From the NCBI GenBank assembly GCA_964426185.1, contig CAYRPF010000010.1:15914-47913 (forward strand): 32,000 bases of DNA, in the 5' to 3' direction. Below, one piece after another: positions 2,359-32,000 of this stretch. The DNA comes from an uncultured archaeon. Its GTDB lineage: Archaea; Asgardarchaeota; Lokiarchaeia; Sigyniarchaeales; Promethearchaeaceae. The first letter of the stretch is position 1. Each line of letters opens with the position of its first letter. The notes under the pieces are model-generated. The model was given only the letters and a program-made list of their open reading frames with translations, was not told the origin of the DNA and searched no databases. The position numbers and the translations under genes were made by a program.

Positions 2359-2745
2359 TATCTTTCGTTACACTTCATGCTTGAAGGCTTAAAAATTGTA
2401 CTCGACTTTTAATCCAAATGGACAAATTTTTTACTTTCAGTTACCTCTCTCGAAAAAATATTTTTGAGATCTTATCCTTTAGGAATTAACACACTATTTT
2501 CTTTGATCTGAAATGGTTTTTATCAAGGACGAAAAAATTGTACTGAAATCATTTATCTAATGGTTGAAGATGTTTTTGTTATAGTTACGCCGAGGTAAAT
2601 TCCACAGAAATTCAGAAAATAGATCTTTTTTCCTTATATCTGTGTTTTTGTTGTTAAAACGAGAATTCTTTATATATAAATAAAAAACAAAGAATAATTT
2701 TGCCAAAACGAAGTAAAACAAAAATTTCCCTAAATAAATGGAGAA

Positions 2746-20908: not shown

Positions 20909-21934
20909 ATGGGACATAGAAGGCAATCCGCCCCTCGACATGGATCTTTAGCATATCTTCCTCGAAAACGCGCAAGATATAATAAAGGTCGTGTCCGTCA
21001 CTGGCGTCCTTATCCAGATAAGGACATTAGGTTCCAAGGATTTGCAGGATTTAAAGCAGGGATGACTCATGTTGCGTATATTGAAGATCAAGAACACAGT
21101 GCCTTTTTTGGAAAAGAAATCGTAAAGGCAGTTACTGTTCTTGAAACCCCTCCCTTAGTATTATTTGGAGTAAAAGTTTATCATAGGGATGAATACGGTT
21201 TAAATACCATCGGAGAAGTATATGCTAAAGAGTTAAAACCTGAATTAGGAAGAAAAATCCAATTACCAAATCCAGAGACTTATAATTTCGAGGAAAAACT
21301 TAAGGAATTAGAAGCAAAGATCCAAGATCATGATGAAGTTCGTGGATTATTCCATACACAACCATGGAAATCAAGTGTACCACGAATTAAACCAGATATT
21401 CTCGAAATAAATGTGACTGGCGGCAATGGCAATGCAAAAGCTCACTTCAATTTTGTAAAAGAGCGATTAGGTCAAGAAATAAGAGTTCGTGATGTTATCG
21501 AAGAAGGATCACTAATCGATACGATTGGTGTTTCCAAAGGTAAAGGTTTTCAAGGCGCAGTTAAAAAATTCGGGATAAAATTAATGTCTCGGAAAAATCG
21601 TAAAGGAAAACGACGAGTTGGTTGTATAGGTCCTTGGAAACCCCCAAAATTATTGTATACCATCGCCCGTTCGGGACAAATGGGATATCATCAACGAGTA
21701 GAATATAACAAACGAATCTTAAAGATTTCAGAAGATAGTGATGAAATCAATCCAAAAGGAGGATTCATTCGCTATGGTCTAGTTAAAAGTGATTATATGC
21801 TTTTACTTGGCTCAGTTCCAGGTCCTAAAAAGCGATTAATCCGACTGAGAGATTGTATGAGACCTCGTGATAATTTCAAGGTATCCTCCCCTGAGATTAC
21901 TTATATTAGTAAAATCAGTCAACAAGGAAAATAG
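20909..21934 (+). CDS. rpl3: 50S ribosomal protein uL3
   Basis: PRHGSLAYLPRKRA, GFKAGMTH, SKGKGFQG, GQMGYHQR. Confidence 0.98.
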   Translation: MGHRRQSAPRHGSLAYLPRKRARYNKGRVRHWRPYPDKDIRFQGFAGFKAGMTHVAYIEDQEHSAFFGKEIVKAVTVLETPPLVLFGVKVYHRDEYGLNTIGEVYAKELKPELGRKIQLPNPETYNFEEKLKELEAKIQDHDEVRGLFHTQPWKSSVPRIKPDILEINVTGGNGNAKAHFNFVKERLGQEIRVRDVIEEGSLIDTIGVSKGKGFQGAVKKFGIKLMSRKNRKGKRRVGCIGPWKPPKLLYTIARSGQMGYHQRVEYNKRILKISEDSDEINPKGGFIRYGLVKSDYMLLLGSVPGPKKRLIRLRDCMRPRDNFKVSSPEITYISKISQQGK

Positions 21935-21944
21935 GTGAAGAAAA

Positions 21945-22742
21945 ATGGCGAAAAATACGAAATCTGTTAAAATACTCGGCTTAGATGGGACAGAAAAAGG
22001 AAATATCGAATTACCAGATGTGTTCAACCTATTTCCAAGATTTGATCTGATTCATCGTGCTGTAGTTTCTTCAGAATCTGCTCAAAAACAACCACAAGGA
22101 AGAGATCCATTAGCAGGAAAGCGAAACACTGCAGGAAGCTGGGGTACTGGATATGCTTCTGCAAGAGTTCCTCGTTTAACCGGATCTGGTTATCCATCTT
22201 CAAGAAATGCAGCATTTGCACCAGGAGTTGTAGGTGGGCGATTAGCTCATCCTCCACGTGCTGAAAAAGTAATTTTAAAGCGAATAAATAAAAAAGAAAA
22301 AGTGAATGCTTTATTATCAGCTATTTCTGCAACTGGAAAATTTGATCTTATCCAAAACCGAGGGCATAAAATTACTGAAGAAATGGAATTTCCATTGGTT
22401 ATCGACGATAAACTCCAAACGTTAAAAAAATCTTCACAAGTGATGGAGGTTCTTGAAAAACTTGGCTTAAATTTGGAATTAAAGCGAGTGAAAGAAGGAA
22501 AACAAATTCGAGCAGGAAAGGGAAAACGTCGAGGACGGAAGTACAAACGAAAAACTGGGCCTTTAATCGTTATTAAAGATGATTTTGGGATCTTTAAAGC
22601 AGCTCGTAATATTCCAGGTGTTGATGTTATCAATGTTAATGAACTTAGTTGCAAATTATTGGCTCCAGGAACCCATCCTGGTAGATTAGTTCTATGGACT
22701 CAATCTGCTTTCCAGCAGTTAAAGAAATTTGAGGTGAACTAA
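21945..22742 (+). CDS. rpl4: 50S ribosomal protein uL4
   Basis: [39 protein letters not shown]. Confidence 0.98.
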
Positions 22743-22743
22743 A

Positions 22744-23010
22744 ATGGCAGATAATTATTACGCGATAATTAAAAAGCCTCTGGTAACTGAAAACACTTTT
22801 GATTTAATTGAAGATCAAAATAAAATCGTTTTTATCGTTGACCGTAAAGCAAATAAGTATCAGATCAAAAAAGCTATTGAAAAATTGTATGACGTTCAAG
22901 TTATTAAAGTCAATACATTAATTAATACTAAAGGAAGCAAAAAAGCATTTGTAAAACTCCATCCAAACTATTCTGCTGCAGATTTAGCAATAAAGCTTGG
23001 AATCTTTTAA
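22744..23010 (+). CDS. rpl23: 50S ribosomal protein uL23
   Basis: [31 protein letters not shown]. Confidence 0.98.
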
Positions 23011-23011
23011 G

Positions 23012-23047
23012 TTTCTTTTTTTTTCAATTCTTTCTTTTCTTTATTTC
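23012..23047 (+). terminator. T-rich archaeal-type terminator after rpl23
   Basis: Oligo-T tracts immediately after the stop codon, between convergent genes. Confidence 0.55.
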
Positions 23048-23127
23048 GTTCTAATGGGCAATCTACTAAACTTAGGTCAAATAGTCTGGTCTCTATCTAA
23101 CAGTAGAGAAACGACAAGAAATCTTTA

Positions 23128-24630
23128 TTAAAAAAAATTTGAAAAGATCAACATTTTTACTACTAATGAAATCACCAAAAAAGATCCTAAAAATAACAGA
23201 TCCACTTTTTTAAGAATTTTTCCAGAAACCATGGTATTAAAAGAAAATAAAGTTATAATTAAAAAATAAAGAGGAAGAATTAAAAAATACCATAAATCAT
23301 AAGTTTGTCCTATAAGTGGGGTATTACTTGAGAAATAATTGAAAATATGCATGTAATTTGAAAATATTACATGAAAAGCATACACAAAGGGGCTTAAAAT
23401 ACTTAAATTGATCATCGATACTAATTTGAAAATTAAAGATTTACTTCGTATTTCGTTTTGTATGAGTTCTTTTTGTTTCTTAATTTTTTCATGTTTGATC
23501 AAGATGTCCTTAAAGGATTTGAAGAAATCTTGTCCTTGTGTGCAATTTATTTTTAAGATCTGAGAAAATGCTTCTATAATGATGAAAATACTCTTGTTTT
23601 TGGTTCTCTCTTTTAGAATATGAAAAAAAGCGTCAATTGGATTAAAACTTCCAATTATTAGATCTCTAATATCTTTAATAGGTTTATTTGATGATTTTTG
23701 GAGAGAATTTAGAAGAGCTAATGGAGGAGAAAAGAATTGTAATTCGTAACTAAATAATTCAAAGAAATCAATAACTTCATTCAATCCAATGTTCTTTGAA
23801 TTTTTGCTTTTAATATAAATTAAAGGAAAAGAACTCTTCCATCTTTTAATTAAAAAGAAAAGCAACATCGTGAAGGATAAAATAATGAAAATAATATCTA
23901 AAATTGACTGAAAATAAAAAAGATTGACAGAAAAGAAAACAATTGGGAAAAAAAGGGTTAGAAAAACTAATATTTCTAAGTGAGTCTTAAATTTTGGCAA
24001 ATTAAATTCAAATTTATTCAACGTTTTTTCATCGAATTGAGAAATTAAGGAATTATTCAGATCATTTCGCTCAAGAATATAGCAGAATAAATCTTTAAAT
24101 TCTTTTGAATAAAACTGAATTTCTTGCAAATTTTTGGTAATATTACCCCCACGAAAAATATTTTGAATTTTCTCTTTAATATTTATACCTAAACTTGGAT
24201 TCTGAAAAAATATCTCAAAAATATATTGAAATGTATTAATTTGCCCAGAAAATGTTTTAGAAAAAAGTGACAAATTCAACAATATAAACCGATAGTTATC
24301 CATATTTTCATATTTTCGTTTTTGGATTTCTACATATAAGAAATTGTGAAGAAATGAGCCTAAAATAAAGATAATAATTAAAGAAAAAAATAAAAATCCC
24401 GTAATTTTAATTAATAAAATATAAACAAAGAAAAAAAGGATGAAGATTAAGCAAAATATAAGTAAGTTAAATTTTTGAATCTGAAATTGGGAAATTCCAA
24501 AAATAATTTCTACATCTCTCCATTTTTTTTCCCTTTTACGAAATAGAATTGGTGTAGATTTAAACATCAAACATGATTTAATATAGTATTTGAGAAGGAG
24601 ATCATTCAAATGAAAATAAATTTCAATCAC
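23128..24630 (-). CDS. Divergent TadC/GspF(PilC/ArlJ)-like pilus platform membrane protein
   Basis: TM pairs alternate with two helical soluble domains (e.g. IDFFELFSYEL..SPPLALL). It lies downstream of the secretion ATPase. The call relies partly on context and the start is uncertain. Confidence 0.6.
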   Translation of the reverse strand: MIEIYFHLNDLLLKYYIKSCLMFKSTPILFRKREKKWRDVEIIFGISQFQIQKFNLLIFCLIFILFFFVYILLIKITGFLFFSLIIIFILGSFLHNFLYVEIQKRKYENMDNYRFILLNLSLFSKTFSGQINTFQYIFEIFFQNPSLGINIKEKIQNIFRGGNITKNLQEIQFYSKEFKDLFCYILERNDLNNSLISQFDEKTLNKFEFNLPKFKTHLEILVFLTLFFPIVFFSVNLFYFQSILDIIFIILSFTMLLFFLIKRWKSSFPLIYIKSKNSKNIGLNEVIDFFELFSYELQFFSPPLALLNSLQKSSNKPIKDIRDLIIGSFNPIDAFFHILKERTKNKSIFIIIEAFSQILKINCTQGQDFFKSFKDILIKHEKIKKQKELIQNEIRSKSLIFKLVSMINLSILSPFVYAFHVIFSNYMHIFNYFSSNTPLIGQTYDLWYFLILPLYFLIITLFSFNTMVSGKILKKVDLLFLGSFLVISLVVKMLIFSNFF

Positions 24631-25059
24631 CTATTTAAAATGAATGTAGCCTATTGAATTACTAATTCCTGCTGTGTAGGTTGTTACAGAATTATTCAAC
24701 CCATAAATTTTTGTATTTTTCGATATTTTGAATACATATTTTTGGAATAAACTGAAATTTTCAATATAAAAAAAAAAGGTAATTTCTAGATACTTCTTTT
24801 CAAAATATCCTTCAATTGTCCCATATTGGCAAAAACTAAGTTGTACCGTCTCATTAAATTCAGAATTTATTGATGAATTTTCAATTCTATTCAAATTTTC
24901 TTCCAATTTAGAAGAGTCTTCCTTAACACTTTTTTCCCAGAAATCGTTTAATTGAAATTCAGGTAGTAAATAGTCTAAAGGAAAAAAAAACGGCAAAAAC
25001 ATTAAATTAAGAAGCAATCCAAAAGATATAATTAAGTATTTTTCAAGAATTTCACTCAT
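24631..25059 (-). CDS. Hypothetical N-terminally anchored protein in the pilus operon
   Basis: ATG at 25059 is 4 nt after the ATPase stop. Single N-terminal hydrophobic helix; its stop abuts the next gene. Confidence 0.55.
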   Translation of the reverse strand: MSEILEKYLIISFGLLLNLMFLPFFFPLDYLLPEFQLNDFWEKSVKEDSSKLEENLNRIENSSINSEFNETVQLSFCQYGTIEGYFEKKYLEITFFFYIENFSLFQKYVFKISKNTKIYGLNNSVTTYTAGISNSIGYIHFK

Positions 25060-25063
25060 TTCG

Positions 25064-27097
25064 TTATATTTCAGAAATAAAAGTATTAATATTCCGATAT
25101 AACTGGTCAATTTGAAAAAAATTAAATTTTTTATTATTATTAAGTTCAATGATAACCTCTTTAATTTTATCTAAAATTGATTGTAGTTGATTTCTTTTTA
25201 AGATAAAGATATTTTTATATTTATTATCTAAAAATTCTTGGATTTGTAACGCATTTTTTTTCCATCTGTGCTCTTGAAAATCAAAATTAAATAGTTTTAA
25301 TATCTTTATTTCTTTCAAAACAGGAATGTAAACAATCTGGTAAATCGAGTGAATAAATCGTTGATGATTAGTTCTTTTCATTAATATAATGATCCCTAAA
25401 TCATTCAAGCATGATTGGTTAATATTGTAATGAAAAATCCATCTGTTTATTAATCCATTAATTGAAGAGGCATGCGTTGTTTGAAGTCCTTTTAATCCAG
25501 CACTAAGACAGTGAAACATTGCATGTGTTTCTAAATTGCTTAAAATCTCACCAAGAATAATGAAATCACCTGAACGATGTAGTAATTTATAAATCTGTTT
25601 TTGTTTAGAATCTTTTTCTAAAGCTTCTGGTTTCACTATATATTTCAATTGATGAGATAAATTATTGATTTTACCTAAGGTTTCAATATTTTCTTCCACA
25701 TAAATTTTCCTAAAATGAGAAGGGGCATACATATCAATTGCATTGAGTAATGTCGTTTTTCCAGAATTTACTTCTCCCACAATGGTTATATTTATTCTAA
25801 AATAAACTGAAAACAAGATAAAGCTAGCAATTTCAATATTTAAGGTCTTTAAATTAACTAGATCTAAAAGTGTTAAAGTTTTTTTTTTCAAATTCCGAAT
25901 ATCAATAGCTATATTTTTCCAATGTGATGGATAAATATCTACACTAAATCTCGCGTAAAAATACTTTGATTGAAAAACATGCATAACATTTGGATGTTCT
26001 AAATCTAATCTCTTTTTACTTTCCAAACACACATAAGTCTTGATTGCTTCAATTTCTACATTAGAAAGCATTAGATCACTTTCTAATCTACCGTAACGTT
26101 GATGGTTAATATATAATGGAGTTTCAATTTCATCTATAAAAATTTCTTCAATCATTTCATCTTGAAGAAAGATAAAAATTTTCTCAAATTTTAAATATCT
26201 CAGCATTAAAATTAATGAAACTTTCTTTCGATCTTCACTAGTAAGTGAATTATAATATCCTGCTAAGTAATGAAAGAATTTACACGAAATATCATTGATT
26301 CGTTCAGATAAATTGGAAGAAATTAAAAAGTCAGATTTTCGGACTTTAAGAGAAACAAATTCAAGGATTTGATCTAATTTTGATAAAACATCTGATCTTA
26401 AATTTATTTCATAACGGATTTTTTTACAATGAATATTATTTTCATATATAATGATGTCGATTAAATCTTGAAAAACTTGATACCTTGTAATTAGTTTCTC
26501 TTGATTATTTGGAATAATTCTGCTTTTTATTGGCATGCTTTGAGTTAAATTTACGAATATTTTCTTCAGAGTATTAATATTCCAAGAGAGAATGGCATAG
26601 CTTATCCTAAGGTATTGTGAGATTTTTGATTTGTACTTTAATTTTTCAAATCCACTTAATATTTTTTGATTTTTTTTTTCATTTCTGTTCATTTTTTTAT
26701 TTGAATTATCACTTAATTCCGAATGATAATCCAAAATTTCATAGAATCGTATGATAGAAAAAGGTTCTTTGAAAAAAGTATTACTTAAGATTTTTTTACT
26801 ACTTCTACTTAGTTTCTTTCTTTTCTTACTATATTTCTTTTGAAATGATATATATAATTCTCTTAGTAGAGAGAGTACATTTATTTCTTCTTTTGATAGT
26901 ACTTGATTAAAAGGGCATACCACTTCTTCGATAATTTTGTCTTTGTGTTTTATAAAATAACTGAAGATACAATCAAAACAATCAGAATGATCACAATTTT
27001 TGAACCTTGAAGATAAATTTGGCAACAGTTTGTAAGATAAAGACTTGGTTGTTTGATTTGGTGATATTACAACTTGAAAGATATCCATAATCTTCAA
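25064..27097 (-). CDS. Type II/IV secretion (TadA/CpaF/VirB11-family) pilus assembly ATPase
   Basis: DEMIEEIFID, IDIR, Walker A GEVNSGKTT, Asp box YVEENIE, Walker B HRSGDFIILGEI, His box TTHA. Confidence 0.9.
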   Translation of the reverse strand: MKIMDIFQVVISPNQTTKSLSYKLLPNLSSRFKNCDHSDCFDCIFSYFIKHKDKIIEEVVCPFNQVLSKEEINVLSLLRELYISFQKKYSKKRKKLSRSSKKILSNTFFKEPFSIIRFYEILDYHSELSDNSNKKMNRNEKKNQKILSGFEKLKYKSKISQYLRISYAILSWNINTLKKIFVNLTQSMPIKSRIIPNNQEKLITRYQVFQDLIDIIIYENNIHCKKIRYEINLRSDVLSKLDQILEFVSLKVRKSDFLISSNLSERINDISCKFFHYLAGYYNSLTSEDRKKVSLILMLRYLKFEKIFIFLQDEMIEEIFIDEIETPLYINHQRYGRLESDLMLSNVEIEAIKTYVCLESKKRLDLEHPNVMHVFQSKYFYARFSVDIYPSHWKNIAIDIRNLKKKTLTLLDLVNLKTLNIEIASFILFSVYFRINITIVGEVNSGKTTLLNAIDMYAPSHFRKIYVEENIETLGKINNLSHQLKYIVKPEALEKDSKQKQIYKLLHRSGDFIILGEILSNLETHAMFHCLSAGLKGLQTTHASSINGLINRWIFHYNINQSCLNDLGIIILMKRTNHQRFIHSIYQIVYIPVLKEIKILKLFNFDFQEHRWKKNALQIQEFLDNKYKNIFILKRNQLQSILDKIKEVIIELNNNKKFNFFQIDQLYRNINTFISEI

Positions 27098-27125
27098 ATT
27101 TCGTGCACCTTAATAAAAAACGACA

Positions 27126-27611
27126 TTAAAATGCCAAAGAAAAAAAAATAGAGAAAAGAAAAAAAGGTGCCAGTGGGGTTTTATCTTCTTTTTTCTTTCC
27201 AAAAAAAATTTTGTAGAAACAAATAGAAAGAAGAAAGAAGAAAAAAAAAGCAAATAAATCTGGAAACTCAATTAAGAAAAAAGCACCACTCAATGACAAA
27301 TTATGGTTAAATACAGGATTTACTAAAATAAGAAGAGTTATTTTAATATCAGCTCCCCCTAACTGCTCTTTTTTATATAATTGGAGAAATATAAGACTGA
27401 TCAACACTTTGGTTAAAAAAATATCAAATTGCCAAACCCAATTGCCTAAAAAGAAAGAAACTATTGAAATCAATAAAATCATAATAAAAGCTTCAAAAAC
27501 TAATATCGAATCAATTTTCTGAAATAAAATATCTTCCAAACTAAAAAGAAAATAGAAAAACAGACTCATAAAATATAAAAGAATAACAATATATCCATTA
27601 TTCATAATCAT
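27126..27611 (-). CDS. Short prepilin peptidase (A24, TadV/CpaA-like)
   Basis: Polytopic membrane protein with both catalytic Asp motifs (SLEDI and LGGADIK) and a C-terminal PLAPF. Confidence 0.8.
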   Translation of the reverse strand: MIMNNGYIVILLYFMSLFFYFLFSLEDILFQKIDSILVFEAFIMILLISIVSFFLGNWVWQFDIFLTKVLISLIFLQLYKKEQLGGADIKITLLILVNPVFNHNLSLSGAFFLIEFPDLFAFFFFFLLSICFYKIFFGKKKEDKTPLAPFFLFSIFFSLAF

Positions 27612-27900
27612 CCCAAAATTCTATAAGGTTCTTAATTGCACGAGCTCGTATATTTTCATCACAAAACCTATAGATTTTAATTCGACCAAAACACTTTTCT
27701 TCTACAATCTTTGCTTTTATTAGTAATTCTAAATGTTTTTTTACGCTATTATGGTTTAAACCGGACATTTTTACAATATATGAGATATTTGTTTCATGAG
27801 AAAAAACTAAGATTTTAATTATTTTTGTTCTTCCTTTAGAAGCAAAAATATCTTCAATATTGTATGAATTTTCTTTAATTATACTTTGCATAATGTTCAC
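27598..27900 (-). CDS. Winged helix-turn-helix (ArsR-like) protein
   Basis: FASKGRTKIIKIL..NISYIVKMSGLNHNSVKKHLELL..VEEKCFGRIKIY. Confidence 0.85.
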   Translation of the reverse strand: MNIMQSIIKENSYNIEDIFASKGRTKIIKILVFSHETNISYIVKMSGLNHNSVKKHLELLIKAKIVEEKCFGRIKIYRFCDENIRARAIKNLIEFWDDYE

Positions 27901-29127
27901 TTATACCTTTGAATTAAAATCACGAATTTTATGATTTAGTCTTTCATGAATTGCATGGATAGGTAGATCAGCATTTGAAATTATCGATTTCCTTCCTTTG
28001 ATGTTTTTCGAAACGACATTTGCTTTAACTAATCCAAAATGTGAAAAATGTTGCAAGTAAATCCATAATTGTGTATTTTTCCTTGGTTTTTTTTGCAAAT
28101 TGTCGCATATTTTTTCATAATGTTGTTTTAAATCTTTAAAAAGAAGATTTTGTTCACCTGTGTTAATCATTAAATCCATTATTGAAAATAGAAACAATAT
28201 TTCATTGAAAGATAAAGAACCAATTAAATCGACATATGAATTTGGAATAGTATTACTTAAGGCGACATCTATCTCTTCCTTTGAAACATTTTTCAATTCT
28301 TTTGATTCAGCAATCTTTACGGCATTTCTTATGATGTTTAATCCTTTTCTAACATCGCCTGAATCATCAATTTCACTCACAATATATTCAAGTGAATCTT
28401 TCGAAAACACACCAGGCTTTATGGCAGTTTTAATCCGGGCTGAGAGAATATCAAATAATTGTTCTTTGGTATATTTTTTCAAGGTTATTACATTCCCTTG
28501 CAGTGTACTTTTTGTAGAATCATCCAAATTTCCTAATAATATTAAATTTCTAACGATAACTATTAAAGAAATATAGTTTTTTCGATCAAAATTCGATTCA
28601 TTAAGGCGAGAAAGGCTGTATATTAAATTGAAATGGGTCATTCGTAAATAATTCAGTTCATCTAAGGTTAAAATCAAGTAAATTTCAGATTTAATTAAGT
28701 AATCTTCTAAAAATAATATAAGTTCTTGAACAGAATAACCCCTAATTGGAATGCTACAATTCAAACATGAAAGAATACGATTAAGGATGTTATTTGGGGT
28801 TTTTTCTTTTCGACAATTAATATGAATATATTTTATATTTAAATTTCTCTTCATTGATGACATTAAAACCATTTTTCCAAACGTTTTTGCAATAACGGTT
28901 TTTCCAATACCAATTTCTCCTTGAATTGTAACTTTTCGAGATATCAAAAATGGTTTTTCCAATAATTTTACGAATATTTTAGAGAGTAATATTAATTCTT
29001 CTTCGCGATGAAGTAAAATATCAGGAATATAATTGATTTCTAAGTGTTCTTCATGTAAGAATAAAGTATTTAGCAAATATTGCTCTTCCAGATAGTTAAT
29101 ATCCGAGTTTTGTTCCATAATTATCAA
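27901..29127 (-). CDS. cdc6: Orc1/Cdc6 family AAA+ ATPase (Orc1-2/Cdc6-2-like)
   Basis: YIPDILLHREEE, Walker A GEIGIGKT, INC, Walker B LDEL, Y..QL.DIL..R, GDVR, and a C-terminal wHTH PRKNTQLWIYL..IKGRKS. Confidence 0.92.
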   Translation of the reverse strand: MIIMEQNSDINYLEEQYLLNTLFLHEEHLEINYIPDILLHREEELILLSKIFVKLLEKPFLISRKVTIQGEIGIGKTVIAKTFGKMVLMSSMKRNLNIKYIHINCRKEKTPNNILNRILSCLNCSIPIRGYSVQELILFLEDYLIKSEIYLILTLDELNYLRMTHFNLIYSLSRLNESNFDRKNYISLIVIVRNLILLGNLDDSTKSTLQGNVITLKKYTKEQLFDILSARIKTAIKPGVFSKDSLEYIVSEIDDSGDVRKGLNIIRNAVKIAESKELKNVSKEEIDVALSNTIPNSYVDLIGSLSFNEILFLFSIMDLMINTGEQNLLFKDLKQHYEKICDNLQKKPRKNTQLWIYLQHFSHFGLVKANVVSKNIKGRKSIISNADLPIHAIHERLNHKIRDFNSKV

Positions 29128-29179
29128 TACATCTTAAATTGTCGGTATTAAATTAAAGAGAAAAAGAATGAAGATTTTC

Positions 29180-29392
29180 TTATTTATTATAAAAATCTTC
29201 GAAAAAGGATAAAACTGAACTAAATTGATCTTCAATCCATCCGTAGATATTTGTTACAATCCCAATTAAAATTAAAAACAAAATTAATGAAAGGGCAATA
29301 AGTAATCCAGTTTCAAGCATCGAACTGCCAGAATTATCTCTTAATAGTTTTTTCCAAAACTTTTCTTGTTTATTATCAATTTTTCTAAACAT
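29180..29392 (-). CDS. Flp-like type IV pilin (class III signal peptide)
   Basis: Basic 22-aa leader ending ..LLRDNSG|SSMLETGLLIAL.., with Glu at +5 and a hydrophobic helix; 48-aa mature protein. Confidence 0.8.
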   Translation of the reverse strand: MFRKIDNKQEKFWKKLLRDNSGSSMLETGLLIALSLILFLILIGIVTNIYGWIEDQFSSVLSFFEDFYNK

Positions 29393-29760
29393 AATCCTTA
29401 ATTTCTCTAAATAATAAAAATTCCGAAATTTTAATAAATACGTTTCATTGTGATATTTGTTTAGGATTTAAAGATTTACGTTGTTTTTTAACAATGAGGA
29501 ACCTCGCTTCTTGCTCTTGACCGAGGATTTTTAAATAGATGAAAATCTAATCTTAGAATAGAAACGTCTTCGATGTCAGGGATTTTGATGATTTATCAAA
29601 TGAAAACCTGAAATTGAATTGAAACGACTAAGAACCTCGAAGAAAGGGAAAAAAAGCATTAAATTTGTCAAGAATTTGCTTTGAGTATCCCGAATAGTTG
29701 GATATCTTAGTATTATATTCACATAATACACAAAAAAGCGGGTATTAAATCCATAAACAT

Positions 29761-32000
29761 CTATATTAATATTTTTTTTCCCATTCTCTTTTTTGGGCGG
29801 AATTTTATTATATTTTGCTTTTTCAAAAAACTAAATGAGCCTATTATAAATAAAACCCCAAGAGTGCTTGTTAGATAGGGTTTTATCTTATCCAAATTAT
29901 AATAAACATGAAAAATTATTGCAATTTCATCATATTCATTATTTAAATCTCGAATTTTAAGTGTAATATTTAAATCAATATTATAATCATTAATAAATAC
30001 AATAATTTCTGATTTATTTATGGAATAAATAACTTGATCAACTAACCAAATAATGGTAGCTGGAAGATTACCCAAATCTCCAATAAAAATAAATTTTACA
30101 TAAGTTTGACTTACAATTTTTGAAACATTTGATGTAAAAGATGCATTAGGCATAAGATTTGGAAATACTTCTATAAATCTATTAATAATTAAAAAATCTT
30201 GATCTCCATCTATATCAAACACATTTAAAGAAACTGAATAATTTCCTTGAGTTAAATAGCGATGTACGGGATTTTTTTCCGTTGAATTATTTCCATCTCC
30301 GAAATCCCATATCATTTTTTGCAATCCATTTCCTTCAAATCCAGTAAAGAAAAATAAAATATCCTGGGTTTCTACAGTTAATGAAGAATTTGTGGAAAAA
30401 CTGGCAATTGGAAGTAGATCAGGGTTTACTTGTATCATACAAGTCGTGATATTTTGTTCATCTCCATCCCAATCAATAATTATCAAAGATGCTTGAAATA
30501 TTCCTGGGTCCAAGTAACGGTGTATAGGTGAAATATCACTTGAATTACTTCCATCTCCAAAATCCCAAAAGAAAGTACTTGGATGATTTCCATAATTACC
30601 AATAGGTGAAAATTCAATATACTCTCCTTGAATGCATATTGAATTATTTACTCTAATTGAAACATTGGGAAAATAATCTTCATTAATAAAAAACGAAATA
30701 TTTGTTAGAAATACATCTAAATCAAAATCTACAATTGTTAGAGTTAAATTGACAACACCTGACGAATTAAAAGAATAAGAGAATGTCTCTTGATAAAGAA
30801 ATATTCCATTCCCTAAATCCCAGCAGTAGGAAATGGGTAAATTTCCAGTAACATTTAATGCTTGAAAAGATATAGAGTAATTTCTTATCAATTTGGATGT
30901 ATTTATATGAATATATCCACTCGGATGTAGATCTTCAGAAACACAAAGTGGAACTGAATTTAAATATTGATCTTTATCAGAATTTTGATCAATTACTGTT
31001 AATGTAATTGAAAAATTCCCTGGAAATTTATATATATGTGATGGAGTCCTTTCTGTGGAATTTTTTCCATCTCCAAAGTCCCAAAAAAAGCAATTTTTTC
31101 CATTACCTTCCAAACCATTGAATTGGAAATCCACAGATTGTCCCGCAACTATATTATTTTTGCTTATATTATAAGATGCTTGTGGAATAAGATTCTGTTC
31201 TATTGATATTGTTTTGGTTGTTGAAAAACAATCGCCATCGTGATCAGTAATCAACAAAGTAACATTGAATATACCAGGATATTCATAAATATTACTCGGT
31301 GAATCTTCTTGAGTAAAATTTCCATCTCCAAAATCCCAAAAAACTAAGTATGGTGAATTTCCAAAACACCCAGAGAAATTAAAAAGAACTAAATCACCAG
31401 TATAAAAAGTAATATTTTCATAAGAAATATTGCCATTTGGAAGAAAATCGATTGATATATTTAATACTTTTAATATTTGCGATTCTTGCATGTCTTGATC
31501 TCTAATTTTTAACTTTACATTTATCATTCCCGGTTCTGAATAGATATGGATTGGATTTCTTTCACTGGAATTAGTTCCATCTCCAAAGTCCCAAAAGAAA
31601 ACTGTTGGATTATTTCCTAGTTGTCCCGTAAAATTGAATTGTATCTCCTGACTCATAAATAAAAATGGAGAACTGATTGAGAAATTTGCTATTGGATAAA
31701 GATCCATTTCAATATTTACAAGCATATAGTGAATTGAAGTATCATTATCTTTGTCTATGACAGTTAAACTAATATTGTGGATTCCTATTTGTTGAAAGAA
31801 ATGAACGGGGTTAATATCAGATGAATTTGTTCCATCTCCGAAGTCCCAAAAGAAAACTGTTGGATTATTTCCTAGTTGTCCCGTAAAATTGAATTGTATC
31901 TCCTGACTCATAAATAAAAATGGAGAACTGATTGAGAAATTTGCTATTGGATAAAGATCCATTTCAATATTTACAAGCATATAGTGAATTGAAGTATCAT
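29761..32000 (-). CDS. Partial (5'-truncated) PKD-repeat surface protein with C-terminal TM anchor
   Basis: About eight 85-aa units, six with WDFGDG, one WDLGNG and one degenerate. C-terminal TM and basic tail. The frame stays open to the window edge. Confidence 0.9.
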   Translation of the reverse strand, partial: DTSIHYMLVNIEMDLYPIANFSISSPFLFMSQEIQFNFTGQLGNNPTVFFWDFGDGTNSSDINPVHFFQQIGIHNISLTVIDKDNDTSIHYMLVNIEMDLYPIANFSISSPFLFMSQEIQFNFTGQLGNNPTVFFWDFGDGTNSSERNPIHIYSEPGMINVKLKIRDQDMQESQILKVLNISIDFLPNGNISYENITFYTGDLVLFNFSGCFGNSPYLVFWDFGDGNFTQEDSPSNIYEYPGIFNVTLLITDHDGDCFSTTKTISIEQNLIPQASYNISKNNIVAGQSVDFQFNGLEGNGKNCFFWDFGDGKNSTERTPSHIYKFPGNFSITLTVIDQNSDKDQYLNSVPLCVSEDLHPSGYIHINTSKLIRNYSISFQALNVTGNLPISYCWDLGNGIFLYQETFSYSFNSSGVVNLTLTIVDFDLDVFLTNISFFINEDYFPNVSIRVNNSICIQGEYIEFSPIGNYGNHPSTFFWDFGDGSNSSDISPIHRYLDPGIFQASLIIIDWDGDEQNITTCMIQVNPDLLPIASFSTNSSLTVETQDILFFFTGFEGNGLQKMIWDFGDGNNSTEKNPVHRYLTQGNYSVSLNVFDIDGDQDFLIINRFIEVFPNLMPNASFTSNVSKIVSQTYVKFIFIGDLGNLPATIIWLVDQVIYSINKSEIIVFINDYNIDLNITLKIRDLNNEYDEIAIIFHVYYNLDKIKPYLTSTLGVLFIIGSFSFLKKQNIIKFRPKKRMGKKILI
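31574..32000 (-). repeat. Intragenic tandem repeat: 31574-31745 vs 31829-32000 (period 255 nt, 1 mismatch in 172 nt)
   Basis: Manual alignment; the only difference is 31585 a vs 31840 g. Confidence 0.95.

Follow-up and report, generated by a model that had tools for sequence, protein, structure and literature searches.

Why a gene of the Orc1/Cdc6 family should lie among genes for a type IV filament is the question raised by positions 23128-29392 of the window (the whole 32,000-nucleotide stretch of DNA that was analysed). The host is Ca. Harpocratesius (Lokiarchaeales), i.e. an Asgard archaeon, as had been predicted. On the minus strand, the region carries seven co-oriented genes, all of which were verified as open reading frames, in the order pilin, Orc1/Cdc6, winged helix-turn-helix (wHTH) protein, A24 peptidase, ATPase, pilin-like protein and platform protein. 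The predicted co-orientation and intergenic gaps (52, 0, -14, 28, 4 and 0 nt) hold as reported, save that the pilin-Orc1 gap is likely 61 nt, ATG 29118 being the more likely Orc1 start, since the alignment with orthologues begins only at about residue 6-10. The 4-nt gap requires that the small pilin-like protein starts at Met31 (25059), the start favoured by its orthologues, and from the Orc1 gene to the platform gene no gap exceeds 28 nt. This arrangement is kept across six genera and is the sole type IV filament set of the genome; a literature search found no published description of a cluster of Orc1 and type IV pilus genes in Asgard archaea. The reading that we prefer, with a probability of about one half, is that the Orc1/Cdc6 and wHTH proteins form a regulator pair which lies within the only filament locus of the genome and drives its assembly genes via the Orc1-2 operon.

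The Orc1/Cdc6 paralogue (27901-29127, minus strand) is assigned, by TIGR02928, tree and motifs, to a wHTH-linked clade of probable Cdc6/Orc1-2 type. It scores 220 bits against TIGR02928 (cut-off 181) and matches PF22703, PF09079 and PF13401 above their cut-offs, with an AAA+ domain, a Cdc6 lid and, at the C terminus, a winged helix (wH); the Walker A (GxxGxGKT), Walker B (DE) and sensor-2 Arg positions are invariant columns in a 27-sequence Orc1/Cdc6 alignment. The canonical Orc1-1 of the genome is encoded on another contig (G000 C11; 320 bits to A. pernix ORC1) and is 23% identical to the cluster protein (range 20-24%). In a tree from a quick search, made without Sulfolobales or Halobacteria sequences, the Orc1-1 clade has an SH-aLRT support of 100 and every wHTH-linked Cdc6 falls on the opposite side, so upholding the proposal that the cluster protein is a non-canonical paralogue. 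The unusual ST segment on which that proposal drew is likewise real, ST.ST being a signature of the clade that is common to P. aerophilum Cdc6 and not to Orc1-1. The best solved relative of the clade is P. aerophilum Cdc6 (124 bits with the window protein, 222 bits with a Culexarchaeal orthologue); thus, a place in the Cdc6/Orc1-2 cluster (Raymann et al. 2014) is indicated for the clade, an orthology that rests on the best solved hit and the literature since the tree is without Sulfolobales sequences. Thermoproteales, the order to which P. aerophilum belongs, keep only Cdc6/Orc1-2 (PMC3914693). With respect to the A. pernix proteins, the window protein scores lower against ORC2 (86 bits) than against ORC1 (115 bits). 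Orthologues are present in 173 of 201 Asgard genomes, the clade spans TACK and Asgard archaea, and the Orc1/Cdc6 tree follows taxonomy.

The start of the wHTH gene (27598-27900, minus strand; 100 residues) abuts the Orc1 stop, and its product is the ArsR/SmtB-type partner of this Cdc6 clade. The match to NF033788 is at 1e-7, below the cut-off of that model; PF01022 is recorded for orthologues, and the wHTH profile has CzrA and SmtB among its matches, at 1e-6 to 1e-4 (about 1e-6 over the whole domain for CzrA), which together place the protein in the ArsR/SmtB family. It is alike to the repressors CzrA, SmtB and HlyU in its length of about 100 residues as well as in profile, but differs from them in its constant pairing with a Cdc6 gene. 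Across Asgard classes the wHTH proteins are 39-54% identical, i.e. more conserved than Orc1, and the gene adjoins Cdc6 in 19 of 20 Asgard loci; within a wider set (Bathy-, Culex-, Methanomethylicia and Asgard) it lies directly 3' of Cdc6 in 61 of 80 loci. A prediction of an Orc1-wHTH complex, each protein being given with its alignment, scored 0.00, a result that counts neither for nor against an interaction. Most of these Cdc6-wHTH loci have no pilus genes close by, and the wHTH gene is followed by TruA at four other loci of Asgard archaea (L051, L054, L056 and L061) and by MoaC in Culex/Bathy loci. The pair is far older than its linkage to the pilus, which, the pair being so widespread and mostly without pilus genes, is secondary; the idea of a self-contained pilus module, as originally put forward, is therefore not sustained.

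The Lokiarchaeales locus encodes what seems to be a complete, very divergent type IV filament set, which current family models miss. The first gene (29180-29392, minus strand) encodes a 70-residue minimal pilin of Flp/Epd type with a class III signal peptide, for which cleavage is predicted after Gly, with Glu at +5. All the pilin orthologues have the basic leader, Gly, xxxxE and hydrophobic helix of class III pilins, and the motif G/S-S-M-L-E-T-G-L-L is kept in all orthologues of families f1 and f3; a sub-threshold Flp_Fap match (E 0.02) recurs in four of the six pilins scanned (that of the window and three of five orthologues). The 161-residue class III signal (prepilin) peptidase (27126-27611, minus strand), a short A24 enzyme whose gene overlaps that of the wHTH by 14 nt, matches PF01478 only at E 0.66 in the window copy, while 10 of 11 orthologues match it (best 1.3e-11) and the peptidase profile matches FlaK (3s0x) at 1.2e-7; one catalytic Asp, D88 (the second, that of the GxGD motif), is invariant and the other, D27, is nearly so (absent in one truncated ORF call), as is appropriate for the A24 family.

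The ATPase (25064-27097, minus strand), of the FlaI/TadA/VirB11 superfamily, has a Cys-rich N-terminal extension of about 280 residues; it scores 36 bits against PF00437 (cut-off 24.9), the sole match above cut-off in the genome, and is matched by FlaI, VirB11 and TadA models, FlaI being closest. The following gene (24631-25059, minus strand; 142 residues from Met31) encodes a leaderless pilin-like, or FlaF/FlaG-like, membrane-anchored protein, the N terminus of which mirrors that of the mature pilin; its only family match is a weak one to FlaF_Ig-like (E 0.27), in one orthologue. The tentative assignment of the last product (23128-24630, minus strand; 500 residues) as a fused PilC/TadC-type platform has support at the level of fold only. 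Residues 273-397 of its AF2 model (pLDDT 79) match four PilC/EpsF/TcpE/SpoIIIAB cytoplasmic domains by VIA-align, with Z 7.0-8.4, which is modest for helical bundles, and rmsd 2.9-3.6 over nearly the whole of the targets. By sequence, the platform protein has no Pfam match, its profile drew a blank against PDB sequences, and a PF00482 search gave no match in the genome and a single weak one (E 0.009) in the 11 orthologues; by Foldseek, no match had an E value under 0.5.

In overall composition, the set resembles the Epd pilus of M. maripaludis and bacterial Tad/Flp pili (system 1 of the archaeal T4F, i.e. type IV filaments; PMC13705601), with a minimal pilin lacking a globular domain, an Flp-like G/xxxxE signal, a short A24 peptidase of its own and a TadA/FlaI-type ATPase. 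It differs in that its components are too divergent for Pfam thresholds, in the presence of regulator genes inside the cluster, and in that the platform is fused, there being two platform genes both in system 1 and in non-Loki Asgard archaea. A Pfam search of the cluster found no secretin (RcpA/CpaC), TadZ/CpaE, TadD or other bacterial Tad part, none of which would be expected in an archaeon; we consider the system as Epd/Tad-like, rather than as a member of the Tad family.

Comparison of neighbourhoods bears out the expectation that the pilus linkage recurs in related genomes, with the qualification that an operon-tight linkage is confined to Lokiarchaeales, other Asgard archaea having a looser one. 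Six more Asgard families, with varied arrangements, have a type IV filament (T4F) ATPase module no more than 8 kb from the pair; family f4, and 11 of 20 loci elsewhere in Asgard, have no T4F gene within that distance. According to a 2026 survey of T4F (PMC13705601), such systems are rare in Asgard, with a scattered distribution; the cluster is not mentioned in it.

With respect to transcription, a CCGACAA element (29140-29146, minus strand), which directly follows a TATA-like tract in the gap between pilin and Orc1, is a probable promoter/operator of the Orc1 operon; the element in the window reads CCGACAATTTAAG and is without ANTTTC. CGACAA occurs at the same place in seven of eight family f1 loci (as CCGACAA in six; none is present upstream of Orc1 in L029). 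In the genome as a whole CCGACAA is not enriched (181 observed, 190 expected; the 10-mer, 22 versus 13), so the element is specific to the locus, and the idea of a regulon defined by it was rejected. Because Orc1 has its own conserved element in this gap, the pilin is probably a separate transcription unit, rather than co-transcribed with the initiator-family gene as the original prediction had it. The pilin promoter itself would have to lie within about 71 nt, all that is left by a probable RNase P RNA gene (29464-29752, plus strand; a neighbour outside the module), which matches RF00373 over its full length at 63.4 bits (gathering score 84; E 3.9e-17), the sole match in the genome, and which has 72% mean column identity across six genera. 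The stretch 29393-29760, which had been put forward as a regulatory gap for ChIP/EMSA, is thus mostly taken up by that gene.

A second element is more widely distributed. An 18-nt box with an ANTTTC core (ACTTTC) lies 65-100 nt upstream of Orc1-2 orthologues, and upstream of a TFB-like gene, in TACK and Asgard archaea; ANTTTC, the DDRE, is the Sulfolobus Orc1-2 site (PMC9738581). When a matrix made from six TACK sites only was applied to 611 kb of Asgard DNA, eight of the ten top matches were upstream of Orc1-2 (five) or TFB-like (three) genes. In the present genome neither the pilin nor the Orc1 nor the ATPase promoter carries the box, and the TFB-like gene has only a degenerate version (score 7.8, about the 95th-99th percentile); an Rfam scan of the box-bearing gap at 2300-2800 gave no match.

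Absence of the box from the pilus promoters of this genome, and the occurrence of the pair without pilus genes in most lineages, are as would be expected if the pair were a general regulator, or a chromatin or cell-cycle factor, beside or into whose operon T4F genes merely landed with no regulatory logic. The flanks are also consistent with such a scenario: they comprise housekeeping genes (RNase P RNA, S17e, L3-L4-L23 and TFB-like), and since the whole neighbourhood is a slowly evolving block, the proximity of the pair and the filament genes may in part be inherited synteny. We regard it as less likely, however, in that translational coupling of the wHTH and peptidase genes persists in two families, inversions have left the T4F module next to the pair, the six further Asgard families with nearby T4F ATPases have differing arrangements, and, in family f7, the box is found upstream of TFB-like-ATPase operons.

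That the Orc1-type protein initiates replication at a secondary origin near the locus, with the wHTH as an accessory factor of that origin and the genes of the pilus as bystanders, is unlikely. The intact Walker A/B, sensor 2 and wH elements, and the position of the locus within a conserved core region, would be in accord with such a role, and proteins of the Orc1-2 cluster must initiate in Thermoproteales, where Orc1-1 has been lost (PMC3914693). However, neither a set of ORB-like repeats (repeat search of 22900-30000) nor a cluster of inverted repeats was found at the locus or around it, the sole sizeable gap is occupied by the probable RNase P RNA gene, and the genome has a canonical Orc1-1; in S. 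solfataricus and H. volcanii, moreover, Orc1-2 is not at origins (PMC3914693). Compared with Orc1-1 proteins that act at ORB origins (A. pernix ORC1, 2v1u; S. solfataricus Orc1-1, 2qby), the cluster protein has the same AAA+ lid-wH architecture and all the ATPase motifs, but has ST.ST where they have PRV.SS, differs in the recognition region of the wH, and has no ORB repeats nearby. GC skew over the 58-kb contig is uninformative on an origin, and upstream of the canonical Orc1-1 there is one short tandem repeat only. A horizontally acquired or mobile island with its own Orc1-type replication gene, as might be suggested by the low GC of the seven-gene block (24-27%, versus 30-37% in the flanks) and by the frequency of Orc1/Cdc6 genes on archaeal integrated elements (PMC3914693), is all but ruled out by order- and phylum-wide synteny and vertical inheritance of block and flanks; the Orc1/Cdc6 tree matches taxonomy, and neither tRNA genes in the window nor terminal repeats flanking the block were found.

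On the preferred reading, that of a regulator pair driving filament assembly, an ancient, vertically inherited module of two genes, one for a winged-helix AAA+ protein of Cdc6/Orc1-2 type and the other, in translational coupling with it, for the ArsR-type wHTH partner, would have come to lie between pilin and peptidase genes and would act as an ATP-dependent transcription-regulatory module, not as the main initiator. The peptidase gene would have joined the operon of the pair in Lokiarchaeales, and the ATPase, accessory protein and platform genes would also have joined it in this family, such that the genes from peptidase to platform would be transcribed from the Orc1-2 promoter bearing CCGACAA while the pilin keeps a promoter of its own. 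Capacity for filament assembly would then be made only while the Orc1-2 operon is on. From the gene arrangement, it is thus probable that pilus assembly is wired to a regulator of DNA status or the cell cycle. By analogy with the Sulfolobales pathway, in which Orc1-2 acts through TFB3 on Ups/Ced, DNA damage or the state of the cell cycle is a possible trigger, and aggregation or adhesion a possible function of the filament. The search for DNA-transfer homologues that had been proposed returned a mixed answer: a DprA homologue is present, and no match to ComEC (PF03772) was found in this genome, which is 92% complete.

A Sulfolobus-like circuit from Orc1-2 to pili is, by the same analogy, a plausible hypothesis. 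The features in common with the Sulfolobales Orc1-2/TFB3/Ups-Ced system (PMC6061795, PMC9738581) are a non-canonical Orc1/Cdc6 beside Orc1-1, an element with an ANTTTC core upstream of genes of the orc1-2 type and of a TFB-like gene that is non-canonical, and a link to type IV filaments. By contrast with Sulfolobales, where it occupies a separate locus, the Orc1-2-type gene here is in an operon-like cluster with filament genes; the box is of 18 nt, and there is a deeply conserved ArsR-type partner, undescribed in PMC6061795 and PMC9738581.

It is possible, and we put it forward tentatively, that Orc1-2 and its ArsR-type partner constitute a switch dating from a TACK/Asgard ancestor, which recognises the box at its own promoter and at the TFB-like gene and which drives the Asgard filament, in Lokiarchaeales from a shared operon. 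To our knowledge, no master regulator of an archaeal DNA-damage response other than Orc1-2 has been described, and Orc1-2 is so far known as such from Sulfolobales only. If the proposal of an ancestral switch is true, the Sulfolobus route from DNA damage via Orc1-2 and TFB3 to pili would be one surviving branch of a far older programme, present in the lineage leading to eukaryotes. The conserved partner protein, the TACK/Asgard cis-box and the operon link to the sole Lokiarchaeales filament are handles that can be tested in vitro, and may thus give access to how the state of the DNA or of the cell cycle might be linked to behaviour at the cell surface in the archaea closest to eukaryotes.

The seven co-oriented ORFs of the original prediction, with the gaps assigned between them, are borne out by the ORF coordinates at 23128-29392 (-), in a genome (G000; 3.26 Mb, 92% complete) whose nearest named relatives by protein are Ca. 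Harpocratesius (Lokiarchaeales, Asgard; Orc1 identity 74%). The Orc1/Cdc6 identity of the second gene is solid, TIGR02928 matching at 220 bits (cut-off 181) and the lid and wH domains both being present; since orthologue alignments begin only at residue 6-10, its start is likelier to be the ATG at 29118. The third gene encodes a 100-aa winged helix (wHTH) of the ArsR/SmtB type, a profile of 26 orthologues matching CzrA and SmtB at 1e-6 to 1e-4. The window copy of the 161-aa membrane protein gives no Pfam match by itself; Peptidase_A24 is matched by 10 of 11 orthologues, with both catalytic Asp residues conserved, and the family profile matches the FlaK structure at 1.2e-7. The first gene encodes a minimal pilin of 70 aa, Flp/Epd-like and carrying a conserved G/SSMLE signal, and the 142-aa protein has an N-terminus like that of a mature pilin, the leader being absent; the start of this small pilin-like protein is Met31 (25059). 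The 500-aa protein escapes detection by T2SSF models; residues 273-397 of its AF2 model (pLDDT 79) align with four PilC/EpsF/TcpE/SpoIIIAB cytoplasmic domains, at modest Z scores (7.0-8.4) and rmsd 2.9-3.6, the same family recurring across matches. The 677-aa T2SSE/FlaI-type ATPase is the sole PF00437 match above cut-off in the genome, so that the cluster is the organism's only recognisable type IV filament set. Such filaments are rare and scattered in Asgard archaea according to a 2026 survey of archaeal type IV filaments, which mentions neither the cluster nor Orc1. The GC content of the filament/Orc1 block (23000-30000) is 24-27%, that of the flanking housekeeping genes 30-37%; the block is vertically inherited, and this conservation contradicts an origin as a mobile island.

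The genome encodes three clear Orc1/Cdc6 proteins, besides a fourth that has diverged strongly. The copy on contig C11 is, judged by its sequence, the canonical Orc1-1 (320 bits against A. pernix ORC1, 315 against S. solfataricus Orc1-1; PRV.SS signature), and the window protein is 20-24% identical to its paralogues. Among solved structures the window Orc1 scores best with P. aerophilum Cdc6 (124 bits, versus 115 for ORC1, 110 for Orc1-1 and 86 for A. pernix ORC2), as does a 34% identical Culexarchaeal orthologue (222 bits, versus 160 and 151 for Orc1-1 types); loss of Orc1-1 with retention of Orc1-2 has been inferred for Thermoproteales (Raymann et al., PMC3914693). The STKSTLQ segment, already remarked on as unusual, proves to be a group character, ST.ST being conserved across the whole orthologue group and resembling the P. 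aerophilum Cdc6 segment. In a quick ML tree of 41 sequences, 32 of them wHTH-linked, the Orc1-1-type proteins of this genome and of five TACK genomes form one clade (100 SH-aLRT), opposite to which lie all 32 wHTH-linked proteins, the window Orc1 nested among Lokiarchaeales. The predicted non-Orc1-1 type thus held, no grouping with Orc1-1 being seen; as the tree contains no Sulfolobales sequences, full orthology to Orc1-2 is probable, short of proven.

The idea of a self-contained pilus module fared less well, the pair of Orc1-2-type and wHTH genes being ancient and mostly without pilus genes in TACK and Asgard loci. Of 40 relatives nearly all have an orthologue of the window Orc1, as do 173 of the 201 Asgard genomes sampled (E <= 1e-35). 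The wHTH gene lies directly 3' of Orc1 in 14 of 16 loci of the order and, among 20 loci drawn from 17 other Asgard families, in 19. A profile run against 1.8 billion representatives returned 1718 wHTH relatives, of which the Culexarchaeial and Bathyarchaeial homologues are also immediately 3' of a Cdc6. With a TACK Cdc6 as query, species-representative genomes yielded a clade spanning Culex-, Methanomethylic- and Bathyarchaeia, a Thermoprotei MAG, Thermoplasmatota and many Asgard classes, the wHTH gene being adjacent in 61 of 80 loci, commonly with an overlap of 1-4 nt. At most loci of the pair pilus genes are absent, and TruA (in several Asgard classes) or MoaC comes next. No description of the wHTH partner gene was found in the literature searched.

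Linkage of the pair to pilus genes nevertheless recurs in relatives, as the original prediction had anticipated. The full seven-gene order is kept in one Lokiarchaeales family (f1; Harpocratesius, Promethearchaeum, Lokiarchaeum and others), with the pilin inverted in two further genera of that family. A second family (f3) has an intact Orc1-wHTH-peptidase trio, with junctions of 3-4 nt, and an inverted ATPase-small-platform module 2-5 kb off; in a third (f4) no filament gene was found within 8 kb of the pair. Outside the order, an ATPase/platform/pilin module, its platform split, lies within 8 kb in 8 of 20 loci, from six families. Inherited synteny may account for part of this proximity, since the whole region is a block of housekeeping genes (RNase P RNA, S17e, a TFB-like gene, L3-L4-L23); persistence despite inversions, together with the coupled junctions, speaks for a linkage exceeding that. 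The L3-L4-L23 genes themselves (20909-23010, +) end after L23, head-on to where the filament cluster ends; L2, S19 and the others that usually come next are not adjacent here in Lokiarchaeales. On the other side, family f1 has a conserved neighbour of the pilin (29761-32000, -, running on to C10:49774 of the source contig), a surface protein of 1366 aa with PKD repeats and a membrane anchor at the C-terminus. A near-identical tandem duplication lies in the N-terminal part of this protein. It matches the 'pilus system RbmA-like protein PamR' model below threshold (E 3e-15) and may be a filament-associated adhesin.

The segment 29393-29760, proposed as a regulatory binding target, turns out to be mostly a probable RNase P RNA gene on the opposite strand (29464-29752, +; RF00373, 63.4 bits, E 3.9e-17, full length, below the gathering score), the match being unique in the genome and its sequence nearly unchanged among six Lokiarchaeal genera. 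An ORF of 51 aa called there is an artefact of this gene. It is transcribed divergently from the pilin gene, leaving ~71 nt for the pilin promoter. Of 8 family f1 loci examined, 7 have between pilin and Orc1 a conserved TATA-like tract with CCGACAA (CGACAA in one) after it, and a T-rich stretch follows the pilin stop, on which grounds a promoter of its own is very probable for Orc1; across the genome CCGACAA shows no enrichment. Cotranscription of Orc1 with the pilus genes therefore survives in part: Orc1-wHTH-peptidase-ATPase-small-platform, in which no gap exceeds 28 nt, is likely one transcription unit, from which the pilin would be separate.

A further regulatory signal is an 18-nt element close to TACTTTCGGTTACCTCTC, usually 65-100 nt upstream of the Orc1-2-type ORF, in Culex-, Bathy- and Methanomethylicia, a Thermoprotei MAG, and Odin-, Baldr- and further Asgard lineages. 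When a matrix trained on six TACK sites only was scanned on 611 kb of Asgard loci, 8 of the best 10 hits were intergenic, in sense orientation and 65-236 nt upstream of an Orc1-2 gene (5) or a divergent TFB-like gene (3, MK-D1 included). The ACTTTC core of this box is compatible with ANTTTC, the element that S. islandicus Orc1-2 binds (PMC9738581). The C-rich 3' half of the box resembles the 16S rRNA 3' end and seems to covary with the downstream G-rich ribosome-binding site, making a translational role of that half conceivable. Just upstream of the box, ~100-200 nt before the Orc1-2 gene, loci of other Asgard classes (L045, L051, L054, L061, L064) carry a C/D-box-sRNA-like element with terminal stems, C and D-like boxes and two conserved guide-like stretches.

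In the source genome the cluster lacks the box, of which two perfect copies lie elsewhere. One, at L034 ~1341 on contig C24, precedes the fourth, degenerate Cdc6-like gene by about 46 nt (L034:1387-2673, +; 428 aa, Walker A GAGKN, TIGR02928 only 41 bits). The other, at 2432-2449 (+), scores 27.9, as high as the training sites, and sits in a 387-nt gap (2359-2745) with no Rfam match and no downstream ORF of at least 60 aa. This box and a ~140-nt stretch at 2494-2631 are conserved in Ca. Harpocratesius (93% and 76%), and an RNA or small gene missing from the annotation may lie in the gap and share the control of the Orc1-2 box genes.

The divergent gene (G000:C10:51954-53045, equivalent to L151:4055-5146, -) is weakly assigned as TFB-like, by Zn-ribbon and cyclin-repeat matches below cut-off in three orthologues; canonical TFB genes number about ten in the genome. 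It is kept 4-8 kb from the Orc1-2 gene throughout Lokiarchaeales, and in the source genome lies 8 kb past Orc1 with only a degenerate box. Scored with the full matrix, 14 TFB-like promoters include 5 above the 99th and 10 above the 95th percentile of random 300-nt windows, the sites being mostly ~130-145 nt upstream. In other Asgard families the gene is directly upstream of the filament ATPase; in one of these (f7) a boxed TFB-like gene is followed immediately by it.

The Sulfolobus circuit, in which Orc1-2 acts through TFB3 on Ups pili, is an attractive analogy, one drawn from homology, a shared core motif and gene order; a response to DNA damage would be hypothetical here. As to DNA uptake, no ComEC homologue was found in the genome; a DprA homologue, also sought, is present. 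A less likely alternative, that the Orc1-2-type protein is an initiator at a nearby secondary origin, is not supported by repeats, none of origin type being found in or around the locus; GC skew along the 58-kb contig gave no clear signal. In S. solfataricus and H. volcanii Orc1-2 is not coincident with origins (Raymann et al., PMC3914693). The simplest interpretation has an old Orc1-2/wHTH regulatory module gaining filament genes, which would have become its neighbours in Asgard archaea and its operon partners in Lokiarchaeales, so that filament assembly would follow the state of the Orc1-2/wHTH regulator.
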